Positions 13,185-64,000 of a stretch of 64,000 nt of DNA are shown here, in pieces. Source of the stretch: Armatimonadota bacterium (GTDB lineage: Bacteria > Armatimonadota > DTGP01 > JAKQQT01); contig DASXVS010000032.1 of the NCBI GenBank assembly GCA_036504095.1, positions 18,690 through 82,689 of the forward strand, given 5' to 3'. Each line of letters starts with the position of its first letter. The stretch's first letter is position 1. Below the pieces are notes generated by a model. It searched no databases and was not told the DNA's origin. It saw only the letters and a program-made list of their open reading frames with translations. The position numbers and the translations under genes were made by a program.

Positions 13185-15437
13185 TCATGGCAGCGAGTCC
13201 AAACCGTGCACCGCGCGCAGAACGCGCAAGGCGTCAAGGATGCTGATGCTGCCATCTCCATACCCGGAAGGAGACGACGAAGGCTTGGGCGCCATATCTC
13301 CGGCCGCGATCATCAGTCCGTTCGCCGGTGTAAGACCCGCGGCGGCTGCCAGGAGCGCCGCGACATCGTGAATGGTGACGGCGCCGTCACCGTCCACGTC
13401 GCCCGGCAGGTAAACCGTTACGCTGCGGGACGCCTGAGCCGTGTTTCCGGCCTTATCCACGGCGGTCAGCCGAAGGGTATACACGCCCGGCGACAGCAGG
13501 GACGTGTTCCACGCGCCAAGCGAACCGCTGGAGACCGGCGAGGACAGCGTGGAAATCGTCGTGTAACTTGAAGGACTCGCTCCGGCCCCCGATTCCAGCG
13601 TGGCGTGATCGAAATGCGCGTCAGAGACCGTCCCGGTCACTGCGACGTTCCCCATCACGAAGGCGCCGACCGCGGGCGCAGCAATATTGACTGTGGGAGG
13701 CGTGTTATCGATCACCAGCGCGCTCGATGCGCCGGTGCTGGTGAGGCCAACGCCGTTGGTTGCCCTCACGGCAACGTAGTAGCTGCCCTCGGCAAGCCCG
13801 GCCGTGGACAGCGAGGTGGACGTTGCCGTCCCCATCGCCGTGAACGCTTTCACGTCTGTCGCGCCGGACGTTGTGCCAACCCCGTATTCATACCCGCTTA
13901 TCCCGGACTCCGGGTCGGTGGATGACCACGAGATGGTGACGGACGACGCATTGTTCGCGTAGCCCGCGGAGAGCGTTACGATCGGCGTTGTCGGCGGAGT
14001 TGTGTCAGGACCGCCGGAGGCGTCGGCTATCCGCTGCGCATAGACCTGTCCGGCGCTGATATCGTGCCAATCTTCCCAAGCTACGATCGCTCCGCCGGCC
14101 CCGTCGGTCACCACACAAGGAGACTGTTCGTAGTACACCGATGCGGCTACCGGAGAGCCGTTGTCAGGCCACAACATTCCGCCTGTGCCGGTGAAATGCT
14201 GCACGTAGACGTCGGGGCTGTTCGTCCGGCTGTCCTGCCAGCCGGTAATGACCCCGGCGGCCCCATCGGACGCCGCCGACGGCGCTGTCTGGTCACCAAT
14301 CGCATTGCAAATGGGCTTTCCGGTCCAGGACACGGCGCCCGCTGAGGACACCTTCGCGCCCAACACATCTACACCGTTGCCGGCGGCCAGGTATTCCAGT
14401 TCGGCGCTGCCGTCGCCGTTCGGGATCAGTATCGGTTCGTACTCGTCGAACGTTTCTGTCGCCACGCCGAGGCCGTTCGCCCCCCATTGAGGGGCCAGCG
14501 AAGCGTTCATTCGCTGGGCATAAACGTCGGCGTTCGTTGTCCCGTTGCGGTAGTCGTACCACGCGAAAAGGTATCCGCCCTGTCCATCCGGCTTCAGGTC
14601 GTTAAGCACCTGGTCGCCGGCCGCGTTGCACACAATCACGTGGGAACCGGCAGACCCCGTGGCCGACACCTCGGCCGCTTTCACGTCGGCCACGTTGGTG
14701 GTCCCGTTATCGGTCCAGCCGACGATGGCGCCGCCGCCAGCCTGGCTGACGATCAGAGGGCCGAAGTGTACTCCGGCCGCTTTCATCACGGCCACGCCCT
14801 CCGGCGTCCAGCTCATCGAGCCGTCGGCAAGGACGCGCTGAGCGTAGATGTCCTCTTCGGTGATCGGCCCCAGGGAAGACCGGAAATCCTCCCAGGCGAC
14901 GATGGCGCCGTGCGCCCCGTCGGTGCAGATGACCGGGTGTTGCTGGATGTTGAGCGCAGAACAGACCGGCACGCCGTTCGCTATCCACTGAGGGCTGCCG
15001 TCCGACAGAATGCGCTGGGCGTAGATATTGGTGTCTGTGGCCCCCGCCCGGGAATCCGCCCACGCGACGATGATCCCGCCCGCGCCGTCACTCGCCGCGG
15101 TCGGACTGTCCTGTTCGCCATCGGCTGCGCACACTGCCACGCCGGACGCGCCCCACAACGGATTGCCGTTTTTGTCCAGATGCTGCGCCCTGATGTCGCC
15201 GCCCGTCCAACCTATGCTCGGAGTATAGTGCGCATACTCCGTCCACACCAGGAACACACCGCTCGCCCCGTCCGGTAGTGCCTTGATGCCGCCCTGGTAG
15301 AGCCCGGGAGATGGCGCGGCAATGACGCCGCCGGCCGTCCACAGGGATTGGAAGTCAGCGAGTGCGCCGGATGCCAACCCGGCCAGCAGAGAGGCGGCGG
15401 CCAATCCCTGCAACAAACTCGAAATCGTCGCCTTCAT
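13185..15437 (-). CDS. Secreted repeat protein: signal peptide, ~8 tandem ~48-aa repeats (propeller-like), FN3/Ig-like modules, C-terminal dockerin-like domain.
   Basis: The repeat unit G[VA].VC.A...Q..P....DG.GGAIVAW.D.R......DIYAQR[IV] recurs about 8 times. The FN3-like segment is TTPPTTPIVTLS...ISWSSTDPESGISGYEY. The C-terminus GDVDGDGAVTIHDVAALL...GYGDGSISILDALRVLRAVHGL is dockerin-like. Confidence 0.6.
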   Translation of the reverse strand: MKATISSLLQGLAAASLLAGLASGALADFQSLWTAGGVIAAPSPGLYQGGIKALPDGASGVFLVWTEYAHYTPSIGWTGGDIRAQHLDKNGNPLWGASGVAVCAADGEQDSPTAASDGAGGIIVAWADSRAGATDTNIYAQRILSDGSPQWIANGVPVCSALNIQQHPVICTDGAHGAIVAWEDFRSSLGPITEEDIYAQRVLADGSMSWTPEGVAVMKAAGVHFGPLIVSQAGGGAIVGWTDNGTTNVADVKAAEVSATGSAGSHVIVCNAAGDQVLNDLKPDGQGGYLFAWYDYRNGTTNADVYAQRMNASLAPQWGANGLGVATETFDEYEPILIPNGDGSAELEYLAAGNGVDVLGAKVSSAGAVSWTGKPICNAIGDQTAPSAASDGAAGVITGWQDSRTNSPDVYVQHFTGTGGMLWPDNGSPVAASVYYEQSPCVVTDGAGGAIVAWEDWHDISAGQVYAQRIADASGGPDTTPPTTPIVTLSAGYANNASSVTISWSSTDPESGISGYEYGVGTTSGATDVKAFTAMGTATSTSLSTAGLAEGSYYVAVRATNGVGLTSTGASSALVIDNTPPTVNIAAPAVGAFVMGNVAVTGTVSDAHFDHATLESGAGASPSSYTTISTLSSPVSSGSLGAWNTSLLSPGVYTLRLTAVDKAGNTAQASRSVTVYLPGDVDGDGAVTIHDVAALLAAAAGLTPANGLMIAAGDMAPKPSSSPSGYGDGSISILDALRVLRAVHGLDSLP

Positions 15438-15471
15438 GTGTCTTGCATCCCACTTTTGTGCTTGCGATTGG

Positions 15472-16644
15472 TCAGCTCAGCACGGCGATGCGCACGGCCG
15501 ACACCACGTCCTCCACGTCTCCCTCCGTCAGTTTCGCTGAAAGCGGCAGCGACAGCGTGCGGTCCGAGATCATCCGAGACACGGGGAAATCCTCCGGCCG
15601 GAAGCCGAACCGCTCCTGGTAGTACGGATGTAGGTGTAACCCTATATAATGAATGCCCGTTCCGATGTTCATCTCGTGAAGCCGCTCCTGGAACTCATCG
15701 CGCGTGAAATCCACTTCATCGAGCTTCAATAGAACCTGGAAGAGGTGGCGGGCGTGGGTAGTGTCCGGGTCTTCCGGGGCCGGCAGGTCCAGAGGCAGGT
15801 CCGCGAAAGCCTCCTTGTAACGGGCCCAGATCTCCCGGCGACGCACCGCCCAGTCATCCACTTTCCGCAGCTGGTGAATGCCGATGGCGGCCTGGAGGTC
15901 CATCATGTTGTACTTGAAGCCGGGCGCCACGACCTGGTAGTGCTTGTAGCCCGAGTCGCTGTAACGCTGCCATGCGCCCCGGCTCAAGCCGTGCAGGCCC
16001 CAAATCTCGAGGTCCCTTGCCCAATCCTCGCGATCGGTGGTGACCATGCCGCCTTCGCCGGTCGTCACGTTCTTGGTGGCGTAGAAACTGAAGCAGCCCA
16101 TGTCGCCGATCGTCCCGCATTTGCGACCGTGATACACGCTTTCGATAGCGTGCGCGCAGTCCTCGATCACCCTGAGTCCGTGTTTGCGGGCGATGGCCAT
16201 GATCGCATCCATGTTGCAGGGGCGGCCGGCAAAGTGGACCGGCACGATGGCTTTGGTCCTCTCCGTCACAGCGGCGTCGACGGCAGCCGGATTGATGTTT
16301 GAGGACGGCCATTCCACGTCCACGAATACAGGCGTGGCGCCGGTATGGACGACGGCGTTGGCGGTGGCGGCGAACGTCATATCAGGCACGATGACCTCGT
16401 CCCCCGGCCCCACCCCCGCCACCAGCATGGAGAGGTGCAGGCCCGCTGTGCAGCTGTTGAGCGCGTGGGAGTGCTGTGTTCCGACGTATTCGCGAAACAT
16501 CCGCTCGAAGAGGGCGACCTTGGGACCGGTGCCGAGCCAGCACGAACGCAGGCTGTCCACTACCTCGTTGATCTCATCCTCTTCTATACGCGGGCTGCCG
16601 AAAATGAGGTAGTCTGCGCGCAACGGCCTTTGTGTTTCCATCAT
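15472..16644 (-). CDS. DegT/DnrJ/EryC1/StrS-family PLP-dependent sugar aminotransferase.
   Basis: Full-length match to the family pattern (IFGSPRIEEDEI...ALNSCTAGLHL...FSFYATKNVTTGEGGM...). A PLP-Lys context is present. Confidence 0.9.
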   Translation of the reverse strand: MMETQRPLRADYLIFGSPRIEEDEINEVVDSLRSCWLGTGPKVALFERMFREYVGTQHSHALNSCTAGLHLSMLVAGVGPGDEVIVPDMTFAATANAVVHTGATPVFVDVEWPSSNINPAAVDAAVTERTKAIVPVHFAGRPCNMDAIMAIARKHGLRVIEDCAHAIESVYHGRKCGTIGDMGCFSFYATKNVTTGEGGMVTTDREDWARDLEIWGLHGLSRGAWQRYSDSGYKHYQVVAPGFKYNMMDLQAAIGIHQLRKVDDWAVRRREIWARYKEAFADLPLDLPAPEDPDTTHARHLFQVLLKLDEVDFTRDEFQERLHEMNIGTGIHYIGLHLHPYYQERFGFRPEDFPVSRMISDRTLSLPLSAKLTEGDVEDVVSAVRIAVLS

Positions 16645-16692: not shown

Positions 16693-19239
16693 TCAGCCGG
16701 CGTTTCCCGCGGCGGCGCTCTCCGCCGGAACGGGATCCCCGCCGTAGCGAAGGGGCACCCAACCCATTTCGTGGGCGGCCTGGTCCTCCGCGTAGGCGAT
16801 GAGGCGCCGGTAAAGCCGCGCCTGGCCCCACGCCATCAACACGAAGATACCCAGTATGCCGAGATTCACTCCAAGCGCGGCGGCCGGGTCGTCGATGTCG
16901 AAGGTGGTGACGGCAAGGATGGGGCCCAGCAGCAGCCAGAACCATGGAGTGAGCGCCAGGGTAACCCGGGTGCGCAGCACCGTCTGTTCGTGAACTGCGG
17001 TGTCTACATAGGCGGTGACAAACGCGAGGCGGCTGACCTTGAGGTCCCATCGTTCCCACCCGTCACCCGATGACGCGTCCAGATACATCTGCTGAAGATG
17101 GTAGGCGACCTTGTAGAGAAACGCGGGACGGTCGATCCAGGAAGCCCAATACCCATCCGACGGCGTGGCGGCTTTCTTGCGCCGTGCCTGCGTACGGAAC
17201 CGGGTGCCCTTCAGCCGGCCGATGCTTCGGTAGACCGGCTGCAGCAGATGGAGCCGGAAAACGAGCCACCACTGATATGCCTTTTCCCGGTTGCCCCCGC
17301 GCTCGCGGCGGGCGCCGTCGGAGGCGGCCTGGGCTCCCACAAAAATCGTTCCTGCGAGGCCGCACACCGCCACCGAGGCAAACAACAACGCGACGTACGG
17401 AACCACCATGAAGACGCTCGCCGCCAACGCCGCGGCTGCAAGCACAACGGCATACCATTCGGGGGTCAACGCCAGCCCGGCCCAGTTGGTCCAGTGCGGA
17501 TAATAGACTGACTGGAACATCGCCGCGCCGAATTCGCCGTAATGAACGCGCCGGCCCACTTTGAGGCGATGGAGCGGACCGTCGTAAAGGCTTCCCAGCC
17601 ATTTGATGCCGCCAAGCGCGTTAAAGCGATCGGGGTGATTCTCGTGGAGCAATGCCTCGGCGAAGCCATAACCCCTTTGCTGGCCCAGGTATCGCTTCAC
17701 GTTGGGCCGGCGATGGTGCCACACCATGGCGCCATGGTTAAAACCGATACGATAACCGGCGCTTAATACGCGCCAGCACATGTCGACGTCGTCGCCGGCC
17801 GTACGGTAAATGGTGTTGAAGCCGCCCAGAGACCGCAGCACGTCCGTCTTGAACGCCATGTTGCATCCGGGTACGTGCTCCGCTTCCTCATCGTCCATGA
17901 GGACATGGGTTGCGATGCCGGGGCAGCGGTCCACCGCACGCGCCACGGCATTGTCGTTCTCAGGCAGCAGGTTGGGGCCTCCCACCGCGCTCCAATCCCC
18001 CTCGGTGAAACTGGCGGCGAGATAGAAGAGCCAGTGCGGAGGCAGCACGCAGTCGGCATCGGTGTAGGCCACAATCTCGCCCGTCGCGGCGTCCATTCCC
18101 GCATTGCGCGCGAAGCTCAGGCCGCCGCGGCCAGGCTGCAGTAGCCGGATAGGCTCCGCGTAGGTTCCCGCGATCGATGCCGTCTGGTCTGTGGAGCCGT
18201 CGTCGATCACGAGCACCTCATAGTCCGGGTATTCCACGCGAGCGAATGAATCCAGGCACTCCGCGATCGTATCCGACGCATTGTAAGCGGCGATGACAAC
18301 GGAGATGCGGGGGAGGCGCGGCAGCATCGCATACAGCGGCCCGGTGTACAACTGCTGTACCGTCGCGTACGCCGCCTTCGGCCGCCGGGCCTCGTCCACG
18401 ATCCCGAATCTCCAGTCTTCGACCCTTCGATCGCCCACCACCCACTCGTCGGTCCAGCCGAACAGCGTTATGCCGCAAAGGCCCTTCTGGAACACGGCCT
18501 TCACCAGCCATTCGAGGGTCTCCGCCTGTTTCTCCTCGCTGGAGTGCATCGAGTCCAGGCCCGATTCGCCCAGGAGAATGGGTTTGTCACCGGCGAGCGA
18601 CTGCAGTCGCGCCAGGTAACTGCGAAACTCCGGCTCGCGTTCCAGGTAGACGTTGAAGGTGATGACGTCGAGAAAGGAGAGATCCAGGTATTCAGCGGGC
18701 GGATAATTGGCGAAGGTGACGAGCGAGCCGGGATCCTCACGATGCACGAGGTCGGTCAATTCGCGAAGGAAGCCTTCTATAACCGTCTGCCCGTACCAGC
18801 GGATGATGTCCGGCGGCACTTCGTTGCCAATGCAGTACATCAGCACGGCGGGGTGATTACGGCACGCGCGGACCGCTGCGGTCACCTCGGCCTTTGCGGC
18901 GCTCCTGTCCGTCGCGCTGTCGTACATGAGTCGGCGCGCTTCCCAGAACGTGCCGACGATAACGTGCAGCCCGTGCTCGCGCGCGGCGTCCAGCAAATAG
19001 CGGGGGGGGACAGTGTAGGTGCGGATCGTGTTGACGCCGGCTTCGCGCATCAACCGGAAGTCCAGGTGAACCGTGGCCTCATCCGGGAAACGGTACCCGT
19101 CCTCCGATTCCGCGAAAGTGCCGTAGGTGACGCCCTTCACGAGGAACAGCCGGCCGTTGACCCGCAGGAACTTGCCCCACACTTCCGGTCGTGTGTCCTG
19201 GTTCGCGCGCCTGGTTGTTTCGTGAGATGGCAGCATCAC
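16693..19239 (-). CDS. Fused clan GH-A TIM-barrel glycoside hydrolase domain + family 2 glycosyltransferase + multi-pass membrane domain (polysaccharide synthase-like).
   Basis: The N-terminus (GVNTIRTY... CIGNEV ... LGESGLDS) has GH-A acid/base and nucleophile motifs. The middle (ISVVIAAYNASDTI...VLVIDDGSTD...YTDADCV...QQRGYG) is a GT2 module with D,D,D and Q..R motifs. The C-terminus has several TM helices. Confidence 0.7.
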   Translation of the reverse strand: MMLPSHETTRRANQDTRPEVWGKFLRVNGRLFLVKGVTYGTFAESEDGYRFPDEATVHLDFRLMREAGVNTIRTYTVPPRYLLDAAREHGLHVIVGTFWEARRLMYDSATDRSAAKAEVTAAVRACRNHPAVLMYCIGNEVPPDIIRWYGQTVIEGFLRELTDLVHREDPGSLVTFANYPPAEYLDLSFLDVITFNVYLEREPEFRSYLARLQSLAGDKPILLGESGLDSMHSSEEKQAETLEWLVKAVFQKGLCGITLFGWTDEWVVGDRRVEDWRFGIVDEARRPKAAYATVQQLYTGPLYAMLPRLPRISVVIAAYNASDTIAECLDSFARVEYPDYEVLVIDDGSTDQTASIAGTYAEPIRLLQPGRGGLSFARNAGMDAATGEIVAYTDADCVLPPHWLFYLAASFTEGDWSAVGGPNLLPENDNAVARAVDRCPGIATHVLMDDEEAEHVPGCNMAFKTDVLRSLGGFNTIYRTAGDDVDMCWRVLSAGYRIGFNHGAMVWHHRRPNVKRYLGQQRGYGFAEALLHENHPDRFNALGGIKWLGSLYDGPLHRLKVGRRVHYGEFGAAMFQSVYYPHWTNWAGLALTPEWYAVVLAAAALAASVFMVVPYVALLFASVAVCGLAGTIFVGAQAASDGARRERGGNREKAYQWWLVFRLHLLQPVYRSIGRLKGTRFRTQARRKKAATPSDGYWASWIDRPAFLYKVAYHLQQMYLDASSGDGWERWDLKVSRLAFVTAYVDTAVHEQTVLRTRVTLALTPWFWLLLGPILAVTTFDIDDPAAALGVNLGILGIFVLMAWGQARLYRRLIAYAEDQAAHEMGWVPLRYGGDPVPAESAAAGNAG

Positions 19240-21419: not shown

Positions 21420-24400
21420 CTAGAAGCTTGCTTCCATCCTGCCCTGAGCCTCCGGCCCGGCCGATTTCTCCAGCCGGCTCAGACGTTCTTCGAGACTCCC
21501 GTTCTGTGACTTCAGCGCCTCGATTTGCTTCTGCTGGTCCTTGATTGCCTCCACAAGGAGGGCATTCACGCGGCTGTAGTCCATTCCGGACACGCTGCCG
21601 TCACCGTTGGAGGCGACGACTTCCGGCAGGACCTTGCCCACCTCCTCGGCGATGAAGCCGATGTCGTGCGCGCCACCCTGCGCCGGCTTCCAGTCATAGT
21701 AAACACCCCGAAGCTTCTCCACCTTGGAAAGGGCATTGTCGATGGTGCGGACGTTGGTCTTCCATTTGGCTGATGAGTACGTGATCCAGCCGTTCGCCTG
21801 GCCCTTGCCGCTCTCATCGGAGATGTTCGGTAACTGAACACGGTAGTTCGGCCACGCGACGCCGAAGCCGGTGAAGCCGTTCCCGGGACGGACCACAACA
21901 CTGGGATCGCTTGCGGTCGTGGATGTGGTCTGGTACGTTCGGAACCAGCAGTCCCAGCCAGCATTGTTACTCGACCGGCCTCCCGGGTAGGTGCTGGTGA
22001 CGTTGGCCCTCCATCGGCCGCTGATATCCGGGTTGACGGAGATGGTATACACGTGTCCGGCCGCCATGGGGACCAGAGTGGCGAGCGGGTAGTATCTCCA
22101 CTCCACGTCGCCCGCGCCGCCGATTGTCTGATCGCTCAGAATGGTCCCAACTGTGCCTTCGCCATCGTAGATGCGCAGGCTGGCGGTCCAATTCGACGAT
22201 CCGTCGTTCGCGCCGAAGAAGATGGCAACTCCCGCGAGGTTGCCCGTGCTCCCGGTCGGCACCGCTGCGGTGAAGGACTGCCAAATGGCGCCGGTACCAT
22301 AGATGTAGCTCGGCAGGAGTGCGTTGTTCTCCTGGTCGAGGGTTACTGGAGTGTGGTAGATGGCGAGCGGGTTAACGACGCCGTCACCTTCGATCTGAAG
22401 GCGAGCCGTCGGATTCGTCAGCCCGATCCCGACGTTTCCATTGCCCTTGAAGCGGACGTTCTCCGTCAGCGCGCTGCTTTGTCCGTAGCCGAACGCGATG
22501 TCCGTGCCGGCGGTCTGGGAGTATATCTGCAGCAGGCTGCCCTGGATACCCAAGCCGTAGTGGTCGCCCGTGTTGCCGTACAGGCTGATCTTGTCGCCCA
22601 GGGTGTTCGGGAAGTTCAGCGGAAATCCTGGCGAACTGGTACCGAGGCCGATGCTGCCGCTCGGGAGAACGGTGAGGCGGCCCGCGTTTGCCGTCTGATC
22701 GACGAAGTTCCAGGAACCGTTGCTGGCGGTGTAGATGCCGTAGTTGCGGCCTGTCGCTGCCGTGTTGGTGAACTGCATGCCGGATCCCCATCCCGCTCCG
22801 GACGATGTGAGCTTCAACGCCAGGTTGTTGGTGGCGGCCTTGTCGATCTCCAGTCCGGCATCGGGAGTCGTAGTGCCGATGCCGATGTTCGTCAAGAGGG
22901 CTGTGGCCGCTCCGGCGGTTACCTTGGCGAGCGATGCTGCGTCTGAAGCGAGTTGTGCGCTGCCCACCGCATTGGCGGCAAGGTCCGCAGCCGCGACCGT
23001 CCCGTCCGCTATCTTGCCTGTGGTCACCGCTGAATCAGCGATCCGGTCGGTGACAACCTTGCCGGCCCCGATGGTGGGGTTAGGATATGTTCCTGTCAGG
23101 TCGCCACCCGCGGTGGCTCCAATGCCAACGGCGGCCGTCGTCTGCGTTTTTCCGTCCGGGAACTTCACGCCACCGATTGTGGCCTCGACCACCCCAGCCA
23201 CTGTTAGTTTGGACGACGGCGTCATCGTGCCGATGCCCACGTTGCCGGTATCGTCACGCACCAGCAGGGAGTGGCTCGGTGCCACACCGGCCGCCACGGT
23301 TACATAGGTTATGAAGTAGAAGTCAAAGTCGGAGGCAACGCCGTCATGATACGGTGTGCCGCGCGGATACGAGTTATCAGAAGACTTATTCGGTAGGACA
23401 AGCAGGCTGTCGATGGTAGTGACGTTGGAGATGTTCCACGTACAAACCTGGCCCAGTGTAACTGCGGGCGGGGTAGTGATCGGAAAGCTGAGATGGCCAA
23501 GGCTGTTTCCGGAGATGCGTTGTGAGGTGAGGAGGGTCCCACCCAGGCCCTCGCCATCATAGATCGAGAGCGTTGCCGACCAGGCTGACCAATCAGTGGT
23601 TCCCAGATAGAGTTCCAACCTTGTGAGTGTCCCTGACATCCCTACCGCGAAGGACTGGCCAAGTGACGCGAAGTTGGATGGAATCAGGTAGTTGCCGCTG
23701 ACCGTCTTCTGGGCCTGATCCTCATATTCCCCGGCCGCCACGTTCGGGTGCGTCACGACGTCCAGCGGGTCCTTCGGATTTGGAGAGGCGATGCCGACGG
23801 CTGACGGCCTCACCGTCATCGTATCCACGCTGTTGGCAGCGAGCCTCAGGATGCCGTCTCCTCCCCAGTTGAGGCCGGTGTCGGTATCGCCGACGGCCAG
23901 CGAAATGGCCGGGGCGGAAACACCAATGCCGACTTTACCGGTCACGGCGGCCATTGCGCCACCGGAAACCTTGAGCAGGGAGGTTTCATCGGTAGCAAGG
24001 TCCGGATTCGGATACGTGCCGGTGAGGTCGCCGCCCGCTGCGCCACTTGGCGGCAGGGTGGTAGGGATAGTCGGCGCGCCGGTCACCTTGCTCCAGGCCA
24101 TCCCAACGATCTTGGCGTCCGTCACCGCTCCGTCGGCGATCTTCGCCGTTGTTACGGCTCCGTCCGCGATGGTAAGGGCGTATGGGACGCTCGCCAGAGG
24201 CAGCCTGGGCGTCATCTCCGGATCGGCACCCATCGAGATACCTACCCAAAGCGGCTGGTTCAGTGGCACCGGAAGCGGGGTGATGGCGCCAAGCGTGGTT
24301 GAGACTATGCCATTGGAGGGAGCCAGTGTCTGTGTCTCGCTCCAGAGCGCGGTGCCGCCGGTCGTAACAGCGTACAGCGAGAAGGTGAAGGGTGCGGGCG

Positions 24401-24534
24401 TCGCCATCGGCTTGTCGGCAGAGGTCTTCACCTGTGCCTGGAAAGGAATCAGGCGCGGCACGTCGGCGCGCGCAAGGGACACGATACCGGGCAGGAGCGC
24501 AAATCCCGCCGCAAGCATGGGACGAAGTTTCATA
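21420..24534 (-). CDS. Secreted tail-fibre-like protein with a C-terminal peptidase S74 / chaperone-of-endosialidase intramolecular chaperone domain.
   Basis: I chose the start at MKLRPMLAAGFALLPGIVSLARA (signal) and rejected the 93-aa upstream extension. Repeated motifs N[VI]GIGT.TP.A.L.V. The C-terminus DNALSKVEKLRGVYYDWK...IGFIAEEVGKVLPEVV...MDYSRVNALLVEAIKDQQKQIEALK matches the S74 autoproteolytic chaperone domain of phage tail spikes. Confidence 0.75.
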
Positions 24535-25081
24535 GAGAACCTCCAGATCGCAATCAGGCGCGAGGAGGTCGTCCCTTTCGATGCCCAGAGTCGCTGGAGG
24601 ACGGCATTCGCGAGGACTGAGACAGATTCTAGCCTGCCCGGCTGCTGGAGGCAAGGTTGGCGGGTCAGTCCCTCGTCAGAGGTCAAAGCGGATGTGAGTC
24701 GATGGGAATTACGCCCTTGGGAAAACTCTCTGAAGGCAACACAAAAATCGTGGCAACAAAGCGCTATAATCGGTGTTCCGACATAAGAGTAACCATTCTG
24801 GCTTATCATTTACGCGTCTCCGAACCCCAGTTTGTGGCCGGTGCACTCCTCTTTCGTCCTGAACCGCTGCCCTCATTCAGCCGGCCGTCGGTCCACTGCG
24901 CGTGCGCCGCCGCGTTCAACGCCAGGCGTACCCGGCGATTGCGGTACCCGTGCGATTGCGGGATCAGTTTCGTCGCGTGACAGTGGGGCAACCAGAGGAC
25001 TTCAGTTCGCGCGCTGGAAGCGCTCAGCGGGGCATTCCCCTTTGAGCAGCCTGGTTCGCGACTGGTATCTATTCCAAGAAA

Positions 25082-57689: not shown

Positions 57690-58178
57690 GTGGCAACCCA
57701 TGGGGGCAAGCCGGCGCCGGTCACCGAGGATTGGAAGCGCGTTTTCGCCAAAGTCCTGATCCGAATGCCGAACTACGTCCGCCTCGGCTGGAAATTGGCG
57801 CGCTCAAGCGAGATCCCGAGACGGCACAAAGCGGGGCTCCTCGGTGGCGTGCTCTACCAGTTGGCGCCCGTCGACCTGGTTCCGAACATTATACCGGTTC
57901 TGGGGCAACTGGATGACGTTGGTGTCCTGCTGTATGGCATCCGGTCGGCGCTTCGGCACTGCCCTCCAGACCTGGCAGCACAGCTGATGTCTGAATACGG
58001 CGTATCCGAGGCGCAGCTGAACAGGGACATCTCCGCGATGAATACCGTGGCGCGGGGGTTCGGACGCCTCATCGCCCGCGGCGCCTGGCGCGGTGGAAAG
58101 GCGACCGCGCGAGTGCTGGGCCGCGGCGTCGCCGCGGGCGCGACCCTGGCGTGGGCCGCCTACCGGAGACACAGGTGA
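57690..58178 (+). CDS. DUF1232 (YkvA-like) membrane protein.
   Basis: LYQLAPVDLVPNIIPVLGQLDDVGVLLYGI is the DUF1232 signature. GTG start. Confidence 0.7.
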   Translation: MATHGGKPAPVTEDWKRVFAKVLIRMPNYVRLGWKLARSSEIPRRHKAGLLGGVLYQLAPVDLVPNIIPVLGQLDDVGVLLYGIRSALRHCPPDLAAQLMSEYGVSEAQLNRDISAMNTVARGFGRLIARGAWRGGKATARVLGRGVAAGATLAWAAYRRHR

Positions 58179-61100
58179 TAAACGGACACGCCAACCTGCT
58201 GGAGAAAGCACATCAATCGCCGGGGCGCTTGCGCTTGCGCTGGGCCGGCGCCGGCGCGCCTCCGGAAAGCTTCCTCGACGGGGTCCGCTCGGCGGAGGGC
58301 GTCCAACTGGTAGAGTATCGCGAGACAAGCCGAAGCCTTGTCGTACATTGCGCCGTGGGCTTCGACGATGCCGTCCTCCGGGATATCGCCGTCGAGCACG
58401 GCTTGCTGGTAGGCGAACCAACGCCGCCGCAGCCCGTTCACGTGAGGATTCCGAATCCCGACAACGGTGGCGCTCGCCGCCCCGGCCATTCGAACCCTTC
58501 GTCCACGCTTCACGCCTCTGAAGCCGTGCATGTGGAACTCATCCACGCCGCCGTCCCCGGCCGCGCCCGCTTCCGCATCCAATGGCTACGCCGCCGGCCC
58601 AAGGCGGCCGCACGGCTTGGCGAAGGGCTCGTATCCGTGCACGGCGTTCGCGAGGTTCAAGTTAACACGGCCCTGTGCACCGTGCTGATTGAGTTTGATC
58701 CGGTTGAACAGACCATCCGCACGCTGGTGCGGGCCATGGGAGAGCTCCTCGACGAGCCCGTGGACCTGGTGATTGCGCCGGGCCAAACCCTTGCGCCGGG
58801 ATGGGACCGATCGTCGCCGCGCCGCGCTGGAAGGGCGAGGCGCCGCCCGCCGCGGGAGACATACCAGTGGGCCGCCGCCGCCTCTGTTCCGGATGTGCTG
58901 CTCGAGATGGACGTGCGCGGGCAGACCGGGCTTGCTCCCGAGGAAGCCGCACGGCGCCTGGCGGCCCAGGCGAATAACGCCCTGGATATCGGCAGGCGGC
59001 GGCCATCCGGCGAGATACTCAAGGAGCAGTTCATATCGGTCCCGACGGTGCTGCTGGGCGGCGCGGCGGGCCTCGCTGCCGCCACCGGTTTCGCGGCGGA
59101 TGCGCTGGCGATCGGGGCCGTGCTCTTGATCAACGGCATCATCGGCTACGTTACGGAGCGTTACGCCGAAGGCGCGATCGAGGCTCTCCGCAAACTCGGA
59201 TTCCCGCAGGCGCATGTCGTCCGCAACGGCGAGCGTAAGGTGGTGCCTGCCACTGGGTTGGCGCCGGGGGACATCATTCGTCTGCGGGCCGGCTTCATCG
59301 TTCCCGCGGACGCGCGGCTGATTGAGGGCCATGTGCTCGTCAACGAGGCAATGCTCACCGGCGAAGGCGAGCCAGTGGCTAAGCACAGCCATACGACTGC
59401 GCCGCCGAAGCACGTCCACGAGTTTCAGAACGTTGTGTTCCAGGGAACGTCCGTGATTGACGGCCGCGGGCGGGCGGTGGTCCTGGCTACCGGAAAAGAC
59501 ACGGAGCTGGGGCGGATTCAGGGGATGGTGCAGGAGGCTGTAACGCCACGGACGCACCTGCAGGACGAACTCGATCGTTTGGGCAAAGTGCTCTCCATCG
59601 GCGCCATGGGGGTTTCTTTCGGCCTCCTGGCAATCGCCCTGCTGCGCCGGCTGCCACCCTTCCAGACGATCCAGACCGTTATCTCGCTTGCGGTCTCGGC
59701 GGTTCCGGAAGGTCTTCCGGCAACCGCAACAACGGCGCTGGCCGTCGGCATGAGCCGCATGCTCCGGCGGAAGGCGATCATCAGAAGGCTGCCCGCCGTC
59801 GAGTCTCTTGGCAGCGTCACGGTCCTGTGCGTCGACAAGACCGGCACGATCACGCTGAATCGTATGACCGCGTCGTGCTACTGGTGGGAAGACTGCGTCT
59901 TCCGCTACCGCAATGGGGACGCTGCCGGTGAGTTTTCGCTGGACGGCCATCGCGTAGACCCGCAATCGCAAACGCCATTGGATGCGATGCTGCGGGTCGG
60001 CGTCCTCTGCAATGAGGCCAAACTGTGGAACGCTCCGGACGGGGTCAAGGTCAGCGGCAGCTCTACCGAGGGCGCGCTTCTGCTGGCCGCGCATGCGGCG
60101 GGGTACTGGTATAAGGACCTGCGCTCATCGTATCCGCTCGCACTTGCGCCGCGCCGCGAGCCCGGGCAAACGCGTATGACGAGCGTGCACAAGGACCCGC
60201 AAGGCCGGTTGCTGGTTGCTGTAAAGGGAGCGCCCGAGTCGGTACTCGCCCTTTGCACCCACAAAATGGATAGTTCCGGGGCGCCGGTTCCCCTTTCGCC
60301 GGACGACAGGGACCGATACCGAGCCGCGAACCGCAGCATGGCGGAAAATGGCCTCCGTGTCCTGGCCTTCGCTCAAGGCGGCCTGCCCGCCGACGCGTCT
60401 CCGGATGCAGAACCGCGTGACCTTGTCTGGCTCGGTCTCGTGGGCCTGGAGGATCCGATCCGCCCCGGGGTCATCGAAGCCATCCAGCGCAGCCGCGCGG
60501 CAGGCATCCGAACCATCATCCTGACCGGCGACCAGCGCGGGACTGCACTGTCGGTGGCGCGCAGCCTGGGCCTCACCGAGGGCAGGCAAGCCGTGATGGA
60601 AGCGCACGAACTGGAGACCATGTCCGCGGAGGAGATCACCGCCGCCGTTGGGCGCGTCGCGGCATTCGCGCGCGTGTCTCCCGCGGACAAGCTGCGGATA
60701 GTCCGAGCGCTTCAGGCCAGCGGGCACATAGTTGCGATGACGGGAGACGGCATCAACGACGGCCCGGCGTTGAAAGCCGCGGACATTGGGATCGCCATGG
60801 GCGAAGGCAGCAGCGACGTCGCAAAGGAACTGGCCGACGTCGTGCTAACCCAGAACGATTTCGGTTCGATCCTGGCAGCGATTGAACAAGGCCGGGCCAT
60901 CTTCGTCAACATCCGCCGCGCCTTGAGCTACCTTGTCGCGTCCAACGTTTCGGAGCTTATTGTCGCAGCGGTGGCCCTGCTGGTCGGCATCCCGTTCCCG
61001 TTCGTCCCGATCCAGATTCTCTGGATGAACCTGATTTCGGATGTCTTCCCGGCGCTGGCCCTCGTCCTGGAACCGACGGACAAGGATGTGATGCGCCAGC

Positions 61101-61573
61101 CCCCGCGTGCCCCGGGTACGCCGCTCATCGGGCGGCACGAGGGGAAACGATTGATGCAGGACGCGGGCGTCCTGGCTGCCTGCACACTCTCGGCTTTCCT
61201 CGCCGCCGCGAGTATCCACGGTTATGGCATCGCCGCCACAACGACGGCTTTCGCCGCTGTGACCATCGGAGAGGCTTTATATGCAGCGGTCTGGAGCGCG
61301 TCGTCGGAGAAAGACAACATCCGCCGGCACGGCGCCCTCTGGGGCACCATCGGCGCGACCGTGGCCCTTCAAATCGGCGTCAACCACTTCGGCCCATCGC
61401 AGCGCCTGTTGCATGTGGCGCCGCTCGGACTGGTGGATTACGCGATCGCAGCCGTTGCCGCTGTTTTGCCGACCGTCTGGGGGCTCGGCCGGTCGCGCGG
61501 GATTACGCTGCCCGTACTGCGCCATCAGGACGCCTGGGCGGCGCATAAGCCAAGCCTGGGCTGGGAGGCGTAA
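58175..61573 (+). CDS. P2-type (Ca2+-ATPase-like) cation-transporting P-type ATPase with an unusual ~300-aa N-terminal extension carrying two HMA-like PGR[LA]R domains.
   Basis: [41 protein letters not shown]4 [10 protein letters not shown] and TM6 [19 protein letters not shown] are SERCA/PMCA-like. The N-terminus has SPGRLRLRW and [11 protein letters not shown] domains. The probable GTG start overlaps the DUF1232 stop (GTGA). Confidence 0.85.
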
Positions 61574-61578
61574 GGGCG

Positions 61579-62148
61579 CTACTCGCCCTCGGTCAACACG
61601 GCCAGTTCTTCCAGGAGCGCGTCGTCTTCCGGCGCATTGGGCTCGGTTTCATCGCGGAACATGAAGATCGTCTGCACGGAATGGTAGAAGGCCGTGTACC
61701 AAGGCAGGGCTGCCACGTCGGGGTTGATCGCCAACTGCCGCATTCCAACGAACATGAAAAGCCAGGGCAGGGTGGAGCGGAGGTCAACCTTTCCGGAAGA
61801 GGCGCCGGCCAGCCGATGGTCCGCGTGCGTCCAGAACCGCCGAACAGCGTGGATCATCTCGGCGCCGACAGGCATCTCCGGCGGACGGGCCGCGTGCGGT
61901 CGGCGCCGAACGTGAGCGTGCCGCCGCAGCGATTCCACAAAATGGTGGGGCGATGTCTCTTCGAGGCTGTACTGAAAGACGACCGACCCGGTCATCGCTC
62001 GTATGGAGACACCTTCAATCCCGGGAAGCACATCGGCCATCGAAGCGATACTCTCCGCCAACGATGGGTTACCCTTCAGCCCCACACATTGGAGCCGGAT
62101 CCGCCCGGGAACTTCGTGTTCGACTATCAGCGAAATGAGGTCGGGCAT
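61579..62148 (-). CDS. HMA-like domain protein (fourth PGRIRL-motif paralog) with a hydrophobic C-terminal region.
   Basis: LIVEHEVPGRIRLQCVGL...VSIRAMTGSVVFQY shares the motif with 57168 and the ATPase N-terminus. Confidence 0.5.
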   Translation of the reverse strand: MPDLISLIVEHEVPGRIRLQCVGLKGNPSLAESIASMADVLPGIEGVSIRAMTGSVVFQYSLEETSPHHFVESLRRHAHVRRRPHAARPPEMPVGAEMIHAVRRFWTHADHRLAGASSGKVDLRSTLPWLFMFVGMRQLAINPDVAALPWYTAFYHSVQTIFMFRDETEPNAPEDDALLEELAVLTEGE

Positions 62149-62272
62149 GGTAGTTGTCCGTAGATAATACGTTGGGGCATAGAGTTGCCCCGATCAGTCG
62201 CCGCGGGTTGCCGGCGCGCGAATACGGGTCGTGAACGCGAACCGCGCCCACGACCCGATGCCGGAAGAACTC

Positions 62273-62644
62273 TCACGCCGGTTCGGTGTGCAGTTCCTCC
62301 GGAGTTTCCTCTTTCGCCTTGATGAACCGGCCTTTGACGCGCGGCCGGCGGGCTGCAGGCTTCGGGGCGGGCTCGGGTTCCAGCGTCATCATTTCGGCGC
62401 CGTTGTCGCCCTGCTCATGCTCGGCCTTAGCCTCCGCCACCAGGTCCTGCCACTGCTCACCCGTCTCGGCAAACCATTCGCGAGCCTTCTCCGTGGCCGT
62501 GAAGTATCCCTTCACCGCCTTCTTGGCTGCCGGGCGCAGATGCTTGGCGACAGCCGGAACCGCCGGCGCCAGGATCACGCCGCCGATGAGCAGCCCCAAC
62601 CACCCTTTTCCTTCGAGGCGCTCTCCAACTTCTTCCAATGCCAT
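62273..62644 (-). CDS. Small membrane protein of unknown function.
   Basis: Start MALEEVG preceded by GGAGGAAAACA. One TM helix (GWLGLLIGGVILAPAVPAVA) and a charged C-terminal tail. Confidence 0.45.
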   Translation of the reverse strand: MALEEVGERLEGKGWLGLLIGGVILAPAVPAVAKHLRPAAKKAVKGYFTATEKAREWFAETGEQWQDLVAEAKAEHEQGDNGAEMMTLEPEPAPKPAARRPRVKGRFIKAKEETPEELHTEPA

Positions 62645-62910
62645 TGTTTTCCTCCAGTTCAGATCATCGCGCCCGCGGGTACGCCCGCAAGCTTCGGACA
62701 TCGTAATAGCCATCATAGCCGCGCGCGTAAAAAGATGACCTTAAGGTTCGCCGGGTTCGCTTCGGCAGGTCGCAGTAGCGCCATGTCTTCGTGATCGCGC
62801 CCTCGTCGCGCAGTGGGCGCACCGTACAGTTGCAGGCCGGCAAATCGGACCGCCGGTAACGCCGGGTGAGCTTCGCAGGGGCCAGGATGACGAATCTTTG
62901 TCCTCGTCAG

Positions 62911-62962
62911 CTATAAAGTATATAGTATCAGGAATAGGGTATGGTTCGCTATCCGATACTTT
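62911..62962. promoter_or_regulatory. AT-rich island with direct and inverted AGTAT repeats upstream of the E2-like operon.
   Basis: ctatAAAGTATatAGTATCagg ... ccGATACTTTc. AAAGTAT and ATACTTT are reverse complements, and there are two direct AGTAT copies. GC content here is far below the ~65% window average. The island lies ~165-210 bp upstream of ATG 63124. Confidence 0.4.
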
Positions 62963-63123
62963 CAATTTCCCCTGGGACATACGGACCCTTGACGCAGGAA
63001 GCGTGAGACCGGGACCGCCGTGTGTTTCTGACGCGATGGCGTCGCCTCCTGAGTGAGGTCCGGACATCACGATGAATGGCCGTCCGTTCGTAGACGGTCC
63101 GCTTAGCACGGGGCGACGAGTAT

Positions 63124-63645
63124 ATGAGCATCGACGCAAGGATGCGGCGCCTTCAGGCGGATTTCCAGCGGCTGCTGGAGCTATCGCGCCGCAGTCCGTC
63201 CATAGCAGTACGGCCGCTCAACACTGTGCCGGACCGTTACGAGGTGACGTTCCGCTGTCGCGGTCTCGTATGGCCGCCCGGTGATCCGGCGCCCTCAATT
63301 ACGACCGTGCACCGCATGGAGATATACCTCCACCTGGACTACCCGCGCCTGCCCCCGCGCCTCCTGTGGCTCACCCCCATCTTTCACCCGAATATCCTCC
63401 CACCGGACCACAACGGCGGCGTCTGCATCGGCCAATGGACTCCGTCGGAAACGTTGGACCAGCTATTGCTTCGTATCAGCGAGATGGTTCAGTACCGTAA
63501 TTACAGCGCCGCGGACGCACTGGATACCCGCGCGGCCCAGTGGGCGGAGCAGAACCGCGCCATGCTGCCTGTGGACCTCACGCCACTAATCCCGCCGGAG
63601 ACGAACGACCTGGACCTGGGCAACATTCCGGGAGGTCCGACATGA
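63124..63645 (+). CDS. Ubiquitin-conjugating enzyme (UBC) E2-like protein with the catalytic Cys in an HPN motif.
   Basis: Alignable to canonical E2s over the whole fold. Helix 1 RRLQADFQRLLE. The beta-sheet ends in HLDYPRLPPRLLWLTPIFHPNILPPDHNGGVCIGQW (E2 consensus FP.DYPF.PP.V.F.T.I.HPNI...G.ICLDIL). Then TPSETLDQLLLRISEMV, as in SPA.TI..VLLSI..LL. Confidence 0.8.
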   Translation: MSIDARMRRLQADFQRLLELSRRSPSIAVRPLNTVPDRYEVTFRCRGLVWPPGDPAPSITTVHRMEIYLHLDYPRLPPRLLWLTPIFHPNILPPDHNGGVCIGQWTPSETLDQLLLRISEMVQYRNYSAADALDTRAAQWAEQNRAMLPVDLTPLIPPETNDLDLGNIPGGPT

Positions 63646-64000
63646 ATCGAGGGCGCTCTCTCCTGCTGATCGTTACGGCGCTTTACTCTCTGCCTGCCTG
63701 CGCCGAAAGGCGCGATGTCGTGTCGAACGCACCGCGATTCGTCCGCGGCCAGATATACATCCAGACGGATGCCGCGCTCAAGACCGCAGACTGTGGGGGA
63801 CCGCTGCTGAATGAGCGGGCGGATGTTATTGGCATTCGCACATTTGTCAATACGAATGGGGAAAGGATGGGGTTCGCCGTTCCCATCAATGCGGCATATC
63901 CCATGCTGCGGCACGCCGGAATCGATCTCTCCGGCGCTTCGGCAAGTCGCGCCGCCGGTCCGGCGCCGGCGCTAGAACACGGAACACGCTCGCAATGGGT
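63642..64000 (+). CDS. 3'-partial gene: hydrophobic N-terminus followed by the C-terminal beta-barrel half of a trypsin/HtrA-like fold, with Cys replacing the nucleophilic Ser.
   Basis: ATG 63642 overlaps the E2 stop (ATGA). MNRGRSLLLIVTALYSLPACA is signal- or lipobox-like. YIQTDAALKTADCGGPLLNERADVIGIRTF...GFAVPI aligns with HtrA IQTDAAINPGNSGGPL...IGIN...GFAIP, with the Ser position now Cys. No His/Asp half is present. The frame has no upstream extension. Confidence 0.5.
   Translation, partial: MNRGRSLLLIVTALYSLPACAERRDVVSNAPRFVRGQIYIQTDAALKTADCGGPLLNERADVIGIRTFVNTNGERMGFAVPINAAYPMLRHAGIDLSGASASRAAGPAPALEHGTRSQW

Follow-up and report, generated by a model that had tools for sequence, protein, structure and literature searches.

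In this study, we analysed a stretch of 64,000 nucleotides (nt) from contig DASXVS010000032.1 of an Armatimonadota bacterium (hereafter the window, to which coordinates refer unless stated otherwise). The end of this window very probably holds the start of a nine-gene, membrane-associated Armatimonadota operon of about 7.7 kb for conjugation of a ubiquitin-like protein (Ubl), namely its promoter, its first gene and part of its second. The first gene encodes a 173-amino-acid (aa) conjugating enzyme (E2a), and the continuation of the locus was read from a metagenome contig of the Joint Genome Institute (JGI) of 314 kb (L001) that carries an identical E2.

The E2a product and its predicted fold

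It had been claimed from the bare sequence that the 173-aa product spans the ubiquitin-conjugating (UBC) fold with both the HPN motif and the active-site Cys, and several lines of evidence bear this out. Pfam UQ_con matched E2a at 43.3 bits (gathering cut-off 27), and a profile of 27 homologs searched against PDB retrieved chains of Ubc13, UbcH5 and Rad6 at E of about 1e-12 (3e-12 for Ubc13/UbcH5). The AlphaFold2 (AF2) model, made with alignment A4, reached a mean pLDDT of 93.7 and a pTM of 0.86, and its elements follow one another as H-E-E-E-E-H-H, which is the α-β4-α-α order of UBC proteins. When this model was submitted to Foldseek, the top 50 matches were all eukaryotic E2s, with probability 1.0, TM-scores of 0.6-0.7 and identities of 21-26%. 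Residues H88, P89, N90 and C101 were invariant in alignments of 27 and 36 sequences (A3 and A4) and in 93 of 93 distinct E2a and E2b proteins from the fetched loci, and the C-terminal tail of E2a, which includes NDLDLGN, is disordered. By profile and by predicted structure, E2a is a true E2 of the UBC fold, its active site being of the HPN...Cys type; neither a non-UBC fold nor the loss of HPN or Cys in orthologs, which the original prediction had named as its possible refutation, was found. The overlap of the E2a stop codon with the next start codon was also as described (ATGA, 63642-63645), and a tight junction between E2a and the following protease gene (ATGA, TTGA or directly adjacent) is kept across relatives. 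A 169-aa protein identical to this neighbour of E2a is annotated by NCBI in an Armatimonadota metagenome-assembled genome.

Operon content beyond the window edge

The suggestion that E2a stands first in a ubiquitin-like conjugation operon, to be checked by looking downstream for an activating enzyme (E1), a Ubl and a JAB, was confirmed when the contig was extended, since all three are present just past the window edge in L001. The genes downstream of E2a encode a YukD-type Ubl, a ThiF-type E1, two JABs, a RING ligase (E3), a second E2 (E2b) and an FHA protein, in addition to the HtrA-like second product (Table 1). The two JABs scored 41 and 46 bits, with the JAMM motif HxHPx6Sx2D intact in both (HTHPG...S..D), and Prok-RING_1 matched at 62 bits in two copies with the C4HC3 pattern CxxC...CxxC...HHxxC...C...C that is found in 12 seed fingers. 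Transmembrane (TM) segments were predicted in six of the nine products, the named carriers being the protease, both JABs, the RINGs and the FHA protein, and E1, E2a, E2b and the Ubl were predicted to be soluble, with no TM segment.

Two gene calls of this locus deserve comment. The JGI call at 15358-15981 (207 aa) covers only the second half of the RING open reading frame (ORF), whose ortholog in L087 was called at 396 aa. For the FHA protein, translation probably starts at ATG 16642 (MSDDRVEVKLDDE…), matching the conserved N-terminal peptide of the orthologs (MSNDKIEISFDGEDE…), which the JGI-called start at 17008 would cut off.

Table 1. Predicted features at the end of the window and in the continuation of the operon on L001
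Feature	Coordinates	Strand	Size	Remarks
Predicted sigma-70-like promoter	62898-62926	+		TTGTCC-17 nt-TATAGT, inside the AT-richer patch
Putative 5' leader	62933-63123	+	~190 nt	Placed from the promoter position alone
Gene 1, E2a	63124-63645	+	173 aa	Contains FHPNILPPDHNGGVCIGQW
E2a HPN (residues 88-90)	63385-63393	+		Catalytic site
E2a Cys101	63424-63426	+		Catalytic site
Gene 2, HtrA-like remnant, 5' part	63642-64000	+	119 of 169 aa visible	Gene stops 151 nt past the window (L001 11028)
Gene 2, HtrA-like remnant, whole	L001 10519-11028		169 aa	Membrane protein
Gene 3, YukD-type Ubl	L001 11058-11330		90 aa	YukD 47 bits, ends …EITAGR
Gene 4, ThiF-type E1			417 aa	ThiF 188 bits; C-terminal Zn ribbon
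Gene 5, JAB-TM-LysM peptidase			317 aa	
Gene 6, JAB-TM peptidase			397 aa	
Gene 7, double RING E3	L001 14815-15981		388-aa ORF	~4.8 kb past window end; two tandem MshEN-like + Prok-RING_1 modules, one C-terminal TM helix
Gene 8, E2b			190 aa	UQ_con 28.8 bits, WHPN…C
Gene 9, multi-TM FHA protein	L001 16621-17775		about 377 aa	FHA/Yop-YscD_cpl

Modifier, E1 and distribution among relatives

Among 71 distinct Ubls, 70 end in TAG followed by 0-5 residues and 61 stop exactly at the Gly. The Ubl of the window organism has one extra C-terminal Arg (EITAG-R), which implies a processing step. In 69 distinct E1s, Cys212 and the GxGxxG loop are invariant. Identity to the proteins of the window organism falls from 78-96% for the Ubl through 64-80% for E1, 53-70% for E2 and 39-55% for JAB to 33-49% for the FHA protein and the protease, and such a gradient, with the Ubl highest, is expected of a modifier with many partners.

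At least 569 loci encode this E2 family in a scan of one genome per species, mostly in Chloroflexota, Armatimonadota and Solirubrobacterales, and the same gene set in the same order was found in six further independent Armatimonadota-type lineages (L002, L004, L006, L009, L065 and L087). Searching 86 fetched loci with hidden Markov models built from the operon proteins resolved four architectures. Type A, of Armatimonadota, reads E2a, HtrA-like protease, Ubl, E1, JAB-TM-LysM, JAB-TM, RING, E2b and FHA; type B, of Promineifilaceae, Ardenticatenaceae and Zixibacteria, reads E1-Ubl-E2-JAB-JAB-RING-RING; type C, of Anaerolineae, reads E1-RING-(Ubl–E2 fusion)-Ubl-JAB-FHA; and type D, of Solirubrobacterales, reads E2b-FHA-Ubl-E1-E2a-JAB-RING. 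In the Anaerolineae a Ubl domain precedes the E2 in one fusion protein, with an ITAG|A junction between them, and a second, free Ubl gene follows (P0040-P0088; L053, L058, L061, L067, L069 and others). AF2 modelled the junction between Ubl and E2 as disordered, and the fusion looks like a JAB-cleavable precursor. A contig assigned to Candidatus Methanoperedens sp. (DATCUE010000129.1, L012) carries E1-Ubl-E2-RING with an E2 46% identical to that of the window, the TAG end of the Ubl and the shared terminal peptides, which suggests that the genes moved between bacteria and archaea or that the contig was wrongly binned.

The module had also been put forward as undescribed for this lineage. This does not hold, since 'ubiquitin-conjugating enzyme E2' is the name that these Armatimonadota proteins already carry at NCBI and the operon type is present in the comparative-genomics literature (PMC7159879).

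Is the operon a defence module?

It might be supposed that the operon is an anti-phage or conflict module like Bil, Bub or type II CBASS, its Ubl being conjugated to phage or immune proteins on infection. All characterised bacterial Ubl conjugation systems are immune systems (PMC11601596), and related Ubl/E1/E2/RING/JAB sets sit inside vWA-MoxR/FtsH conflict systems (PMC7159879). The E1 and the JABs partly match the PADLOC models for CBASS 'E1-E2', BilD and JAB, and full-length orthologs of the protease match PADLOC RT-Protease models over the protease domain. However, these matches are limited to generic ThiF, JAB and trypsin domains, and E2a, E2b, the Ubl, RING and FHA proteins have none. 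The neighbours include no CD-NTase, DUF6527, vWA, MoxR, caspase or EAD1 gene and are ordinary chromosomal genes, namely a P-type ATPase with HMA_2 here, ileS-lspA-lgt in L004, L006 and L008, and che genes in L002. In addition, gene order is stable and the Ubl keeps 78-96% identity from lineage to lineage, unlike fast-evolving immune genes, and in a scan of 2.9 million viral contigs the family was seen in no phage, the sole matches being two giant-virus E2s. We regard a role in defence as unlikely.

The upstream region and the predicted promoter

The GC content drops to 46% at 62900-62999, where the flanks have about 60-67%, so the AT-richer patch noticed upstream of E2a does exist. It contains TTGTCC-17-TATAGT, the sole promoter-like match in 62600-63200 (0.1 expected), and the equivalent upstream position is occupied by TTGACA-17-TATAAT in L004, L006 and L008 and by an extended -10 in L002; when the upstream regions of five lineages were aligned, only the promoter hexamers lined up. 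We take the patch to be, most likely, the promoter of the operon, predicted at consensus level.

The second half of the earlier description, that the patch is an operator made of repeats, fared worse. AGTAT words occur at 62917 and 62924 on the plus strand and at 62956 on the minus strand, with a fourth copy at 63119, and if they acted as direct and inverted repeats they might bind a repressor of the operon: three of them fall within 44 nt, and the first two overlap the -10 hexamer, where operators often sit. On the other hand, they are 5-mers picked post hoc in an AT-rich stretch, AGTAT was found in no relative's upstream region, and no regulator gene is adjacent. AGTAT occurs 40 times across the window against 29.6 expected, and a repeat search of 62800-63130 gave only chance-level pairs of 9-14 nt, with no repeat of 8 nt or more at the AGTAT site. 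A repressor operator at this place is therefore very unlikely, and the patch is left as a predicted promoter. The fourth AGTAT (63119-63123) directly abuts the start codon of E2a on its 5' side (GACGAGTATATG) and falls within the region of ribosome binding.

A riboswitch or structured leader was considered and found no support. Rfam gave no match at E<=1 over the promoter and leader region, the leader RNA folded no better than its shuffles (z = 0.25), and its sequence is not conserved among relatives.

A degenerate HtrA-like protease as the second gene

Several features claimed for the second product were seen again in the ORF and in its HtrA and Trypsin matches: a signal- or lipobox-like N-terminus (…LYSLPAC), the C-terminal segment of the protease only, and a Cys at the position of the catalytic Ser (Cys51 in TADCGGPL, nt 63792-63794). 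NCBIfam HtrA matched residues 39-89 only (E = 2.5e-13), and Pfam Trypsin reached 19.6 bits, under its cut-off, over the last quarter of the model only. A predicted TM helix and a cytoplasmic tail ending DDLDITLR fall past the window edge. Type-A orthologs are 291-314 aa long and consist of a signal peptide, a full S1/HtrA-like domain (TNAHV…DLA…G[NS]SGGP), a TM helix and a tail ending DDLDIELK. The window copy aligns to them at both ends; some 125 residues are missing from it, the His and Asp segments among them, and GNSGG is changed to ADCGG. The nearest relative, L087 (E2 66-70% identical), has a full-length protease with Ser. An independent Logan assembly (L088), probably derived from the same sample, agrees at every position over 13 kb (100% identity), which means that the deletion is no assembler artefact.

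When compared with HtrA/DegP, the 169-aa product matches, over residues 39-89, the segment of the catalytic Ser and the final protease strands, whereas the N-terminal barrel and the PDZ domain are missing, Cys stands in for Ser, and a C-terminal TM helix with the DDLDITLR tail is added; the His-Asp-Ser triad on two beta-barrels by which S1C proteases of the HtrA/DegP kind are recognised is not present. To judge from its sequence, the 169-aa product is a remnant, specific to this lineage and catalytically dead, in which signal peptide, TM helix and tail persist.

It might instead be argued that this 'half-trypsin' with its Cys is a new functional cysteine peptidase or a dedicated partner enzyme of E2, given that the gene is in frame and ATGA-coupled, that signal peptide, TM helix and tail are kept, and that the GGP residues of the oxyanion hole persist. 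However, the His (TNAHV) and Asp (DLA) segments are gone. Conservation of the Cys of CGGPL, which had been proposed as a check, was looked for and not found: every ortholog examined has G[NS]SGGP. Nor did 5.8 billion protein clusters contain any other short or Cys-bearing homolog, the window copy being a singleton. Since all orthologs examined, L087 among them, have the Ser and the full domain, and no other short or Cys form is on record, Cys51 is not a conserved catalytic variant, and we consider a cysteine peptidase highly improbable. The 169-aa product, read as a dead remnant, can only be a membrane scaffold or a tail-bearing adaptor if it is still functional, and the shortened copy indicates that at least one lineage can do without the protease activity.

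In three Armatimonadota lineages (L004, L005, L006 and L008, 5200-9800) the operon lies directly 3' of ileS, lspA and lgt, genes of lipoprotein maturation, and the protease of these lineages has a clean lipobox (LSAC, ISC); the association may be coincidence.

The last alternative, that the E2 is a eukaryote-like effector acquired horizontally to manipulate host ubiquitin, draws on its best sequence and structure matches being eukaryotic (UbcH5, Ubc13 and Rad6), but it has next to no chance and is effectively refuted by the operon context, the gene lying in one operon with its own Ubl, E1, E3 and deubiquitinases (DUBs), showing only 21-26% identity to eukaryotic E2s and no secretion signal, and recurring at no fewer than 569 loci in free-living Chloroflexota, Armatimonadota and Actinomycetota.

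Proposed mechanism

The domain set, catalytic residues, predicted topology and conservation on which the following scheme draws were computed, and its chemistry is borrowed by homology from the archaeal cascade and from eukaryotic systems. A JAMM peptidase would trim the lone extra Arg off the Ubl and expose …Thr-Ala-Gly, upon which E1 would adenylate Gly89 of the Ubl and then take it over as a thioester on the invariant Cys212. The Ubl would be handed to Cys101 in E2a, or to its counterpart in E2b, with HPN assisting aminolysis. The membrane-anchored C4HC3 RING proteins would then recruit the charged E2 to substrates along the membrane's inner face, and the two JAMM peptidases would undo the modification. 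The extracytoplasmic LysM and HtrA-like modules, together with FHA, might couple the cascade to cell-envelope or phospho-signalling status, which is a weak and speculative step.

A number of points weigh against this picture of the operon. Leader and promoter are consensus-level predictions only, the shortened protease may simply be decaying and irrelevant, and the idea of envelope sensing is speculative, being drawn from domain architecture only. The literature that could be searched yielded neither biochemical nor expression data on this system from any bacterium. In addition, the Ubl here is YukD-like, and the founding member YukD was reported as not conjugated (PMC1779556).

Terminal peptides shared by the operon proteins

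Most of the operon proteins share a short amphipathic peptide at one extreme terminus, in which a polar or charged residue is followed by [LIV], x, [LIV], x and [LIVF] (DDLDITLR, DDLEIELK, MxDDLDIxLIG). The protease and E2b carry it at the C-terminus, as does E2a in degenerate form, and E1, the two JABs and the FHA protein have it at the N-terminus; RING proteins of type A lack it. Counted on non-redundant sequences against a background of ORFs, the motif is present at 33 of 80 C-termini of E2a (p 4e-31), 8 of 11 of the protease (p 2e-12) and 7 of 13 of E2b (p 1e-9), with a background of 1.5% in each case, and at 18 of 112 N-termini of JAB2 (background 4.2%, p 5e-6). Variants occur in all four architectures, those of type C being basic (…RIKLK). 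In the AF2 model of a natural Ubl–E2 fusion (P0045), which covers the cis arrangement only, the C-terminal tail was undocked and disordered, with pLDDT below 50. We tentatively propose, as a possibility rather than an expectation, that these amphipathic beta-strand peptides are an as yet undescribed docking code, comparable to SUMO-interacting motifs (SIMs) or beta-strand-addition motifs, that might join the soluble E1, E2 and Ubl to the membrane-bound JAB-LysM, FHA and HtrA-like modules in an envelope-monitoring machine, the dead protease being kept only as a scaffold.

Other genes of the window

A cluster at 57690-62716, which directly precedes the E2 operon and is divergent from it, encodes a DUF1232 protein and a P-type ATPase with an N-terminal HMA_2 domain (58151-61573). 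Two further genes of the cluster lie on the minus strand, one for a protein made of HMA_2 by itself (61579-62148) and one for a DUF5132 protein (62273-62716). Elsewhere the window holds glycosidases, NorB and ABC transporters. At 21423-24809 on the minus strand, a 1129-aa protein with a C-terminal Peptidase_S74 domain adjoins large beta-helix proteins among glycosidase and glycosyltransferase genes; Peptidase_S74 is the intramolecular chaperone of endosialidases and tail spikes.

Comparison with known systems

Of the bacterial families predicted by bioinformatics, none but CBASS-II, Bil and Bub has been characterised (PMC11601596, PMC11601603), and no experimental study of the RING-containing bacterial family was found in the literature that could be searched. 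A defence identity of the Bil, Bub or CBASS type, as the original prediction had considered, agrees neither with the PADLOC results nor with the hallmarks of any of the three. Bil likewise has separate genes for Ubl, E2, JAB and E1 and uses thioester chemistry on an E2 Cys, but its E2 carries CEHH instead of HPN (PMC11354881) and it has no RING E3. The operon here has an HPN E2 and RING E3s, and its PADLOC match is a partial BilD only (35 bits, over the ThiF core), with none to BilA or BilB. With CBASS-II Cap2/Cap3 and with Bub, what is shared is distant homology of the E1 adenylation and JAB domains. Cap2 fuses E2 to E1 and targets a CD-NTase, next to which it is encoded together with an effector. 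In the present operon the two enzymes come from separate genes and rely on Cys, no CD-NTase lies in the 20-kb locus, and the PADLOC 'E1-E2' match spans only residues 42-198 of E1. Bub has a Cys-less E2 and E1 that work through Ser/Tyr oxyesters, plus a DUF6527 serine protease (PMC11601596), whereas E2 Cys101 and E1 Cys212 are invariant in the present family and no operon product matches DUF6527/PF20137.

The archaeal cascade of Caldiarchaeum subterraneum/Asgard has been reconstituted, and its modifier is JAMM-trimmed before activation (Hennell James et al. 2017, PMC5654768). Modifier, E1, E2, a small RING E3 and Rpn11/JAMM likewise lie in one operon there (PMC5654768). The archaeal modifier, however, is a true ubiquitin with Gly-Gly and a 9-residue propeptide, while the modifier here is of YukD type and ends in Ala-Gly with 0-1 further residues; the archaeal components are soluble and biochemically shown, and those described here are mostly membrane proteins known from genes alone.

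The closest likeness is to complete prokaryotic Ubl/E1/E2/RING/JAB systems, which were reportedly predicted by Burroughs, Iyer and Aravind in 2011 (Mol Biosyst 7:2261), a paper said to be also the source of Pfam Prok-RING_1. Such operons were restated by Kaur et al. in 2020 (PMC7159879). As far as sequence can tell, the operon is of this Ubl-E1-E2-RING-JAB type in every testable feature, with an adjacent Ubl bearing a C-terminal Gly, a ThiF E1 with loop and Cys, a C4HC3 RING and a JAMM-intact JAB. Common to both are a YukD-like Ubl, a ThiF E1, an HPN/Cys E2, a Prok-RING_1 E3 and JAMM/JAB in one operon, and the Armatimonadota add an HtrA-like protease coupled to E2a, a JAB-TM-LysM protein, a second E2 with an intact active site, a multi-TM FHA protein and several TM-anchored RING paralogues. 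No earlier description of these additions was found, and some of them may be in the 2011 paper. The operon is thus no new kind of system, its type being already predicted and widespread, and the E2 is real but not new. Complete E1/E2/RING-E3/Ubl/DUB operons are nonetheless the nearest bacterial counterparts of eukaryotic ubiquitylation, and this locus documents a compact, well-conserved and largely membrane-anchored Armatimonadota architecture, with two E2s whose active sites are intact and a modifier constrained like ubiquitin (78-96%), which could serve as a reconstitution target for the role of Ubl tagging in a bacterium not obviously fighting phage.

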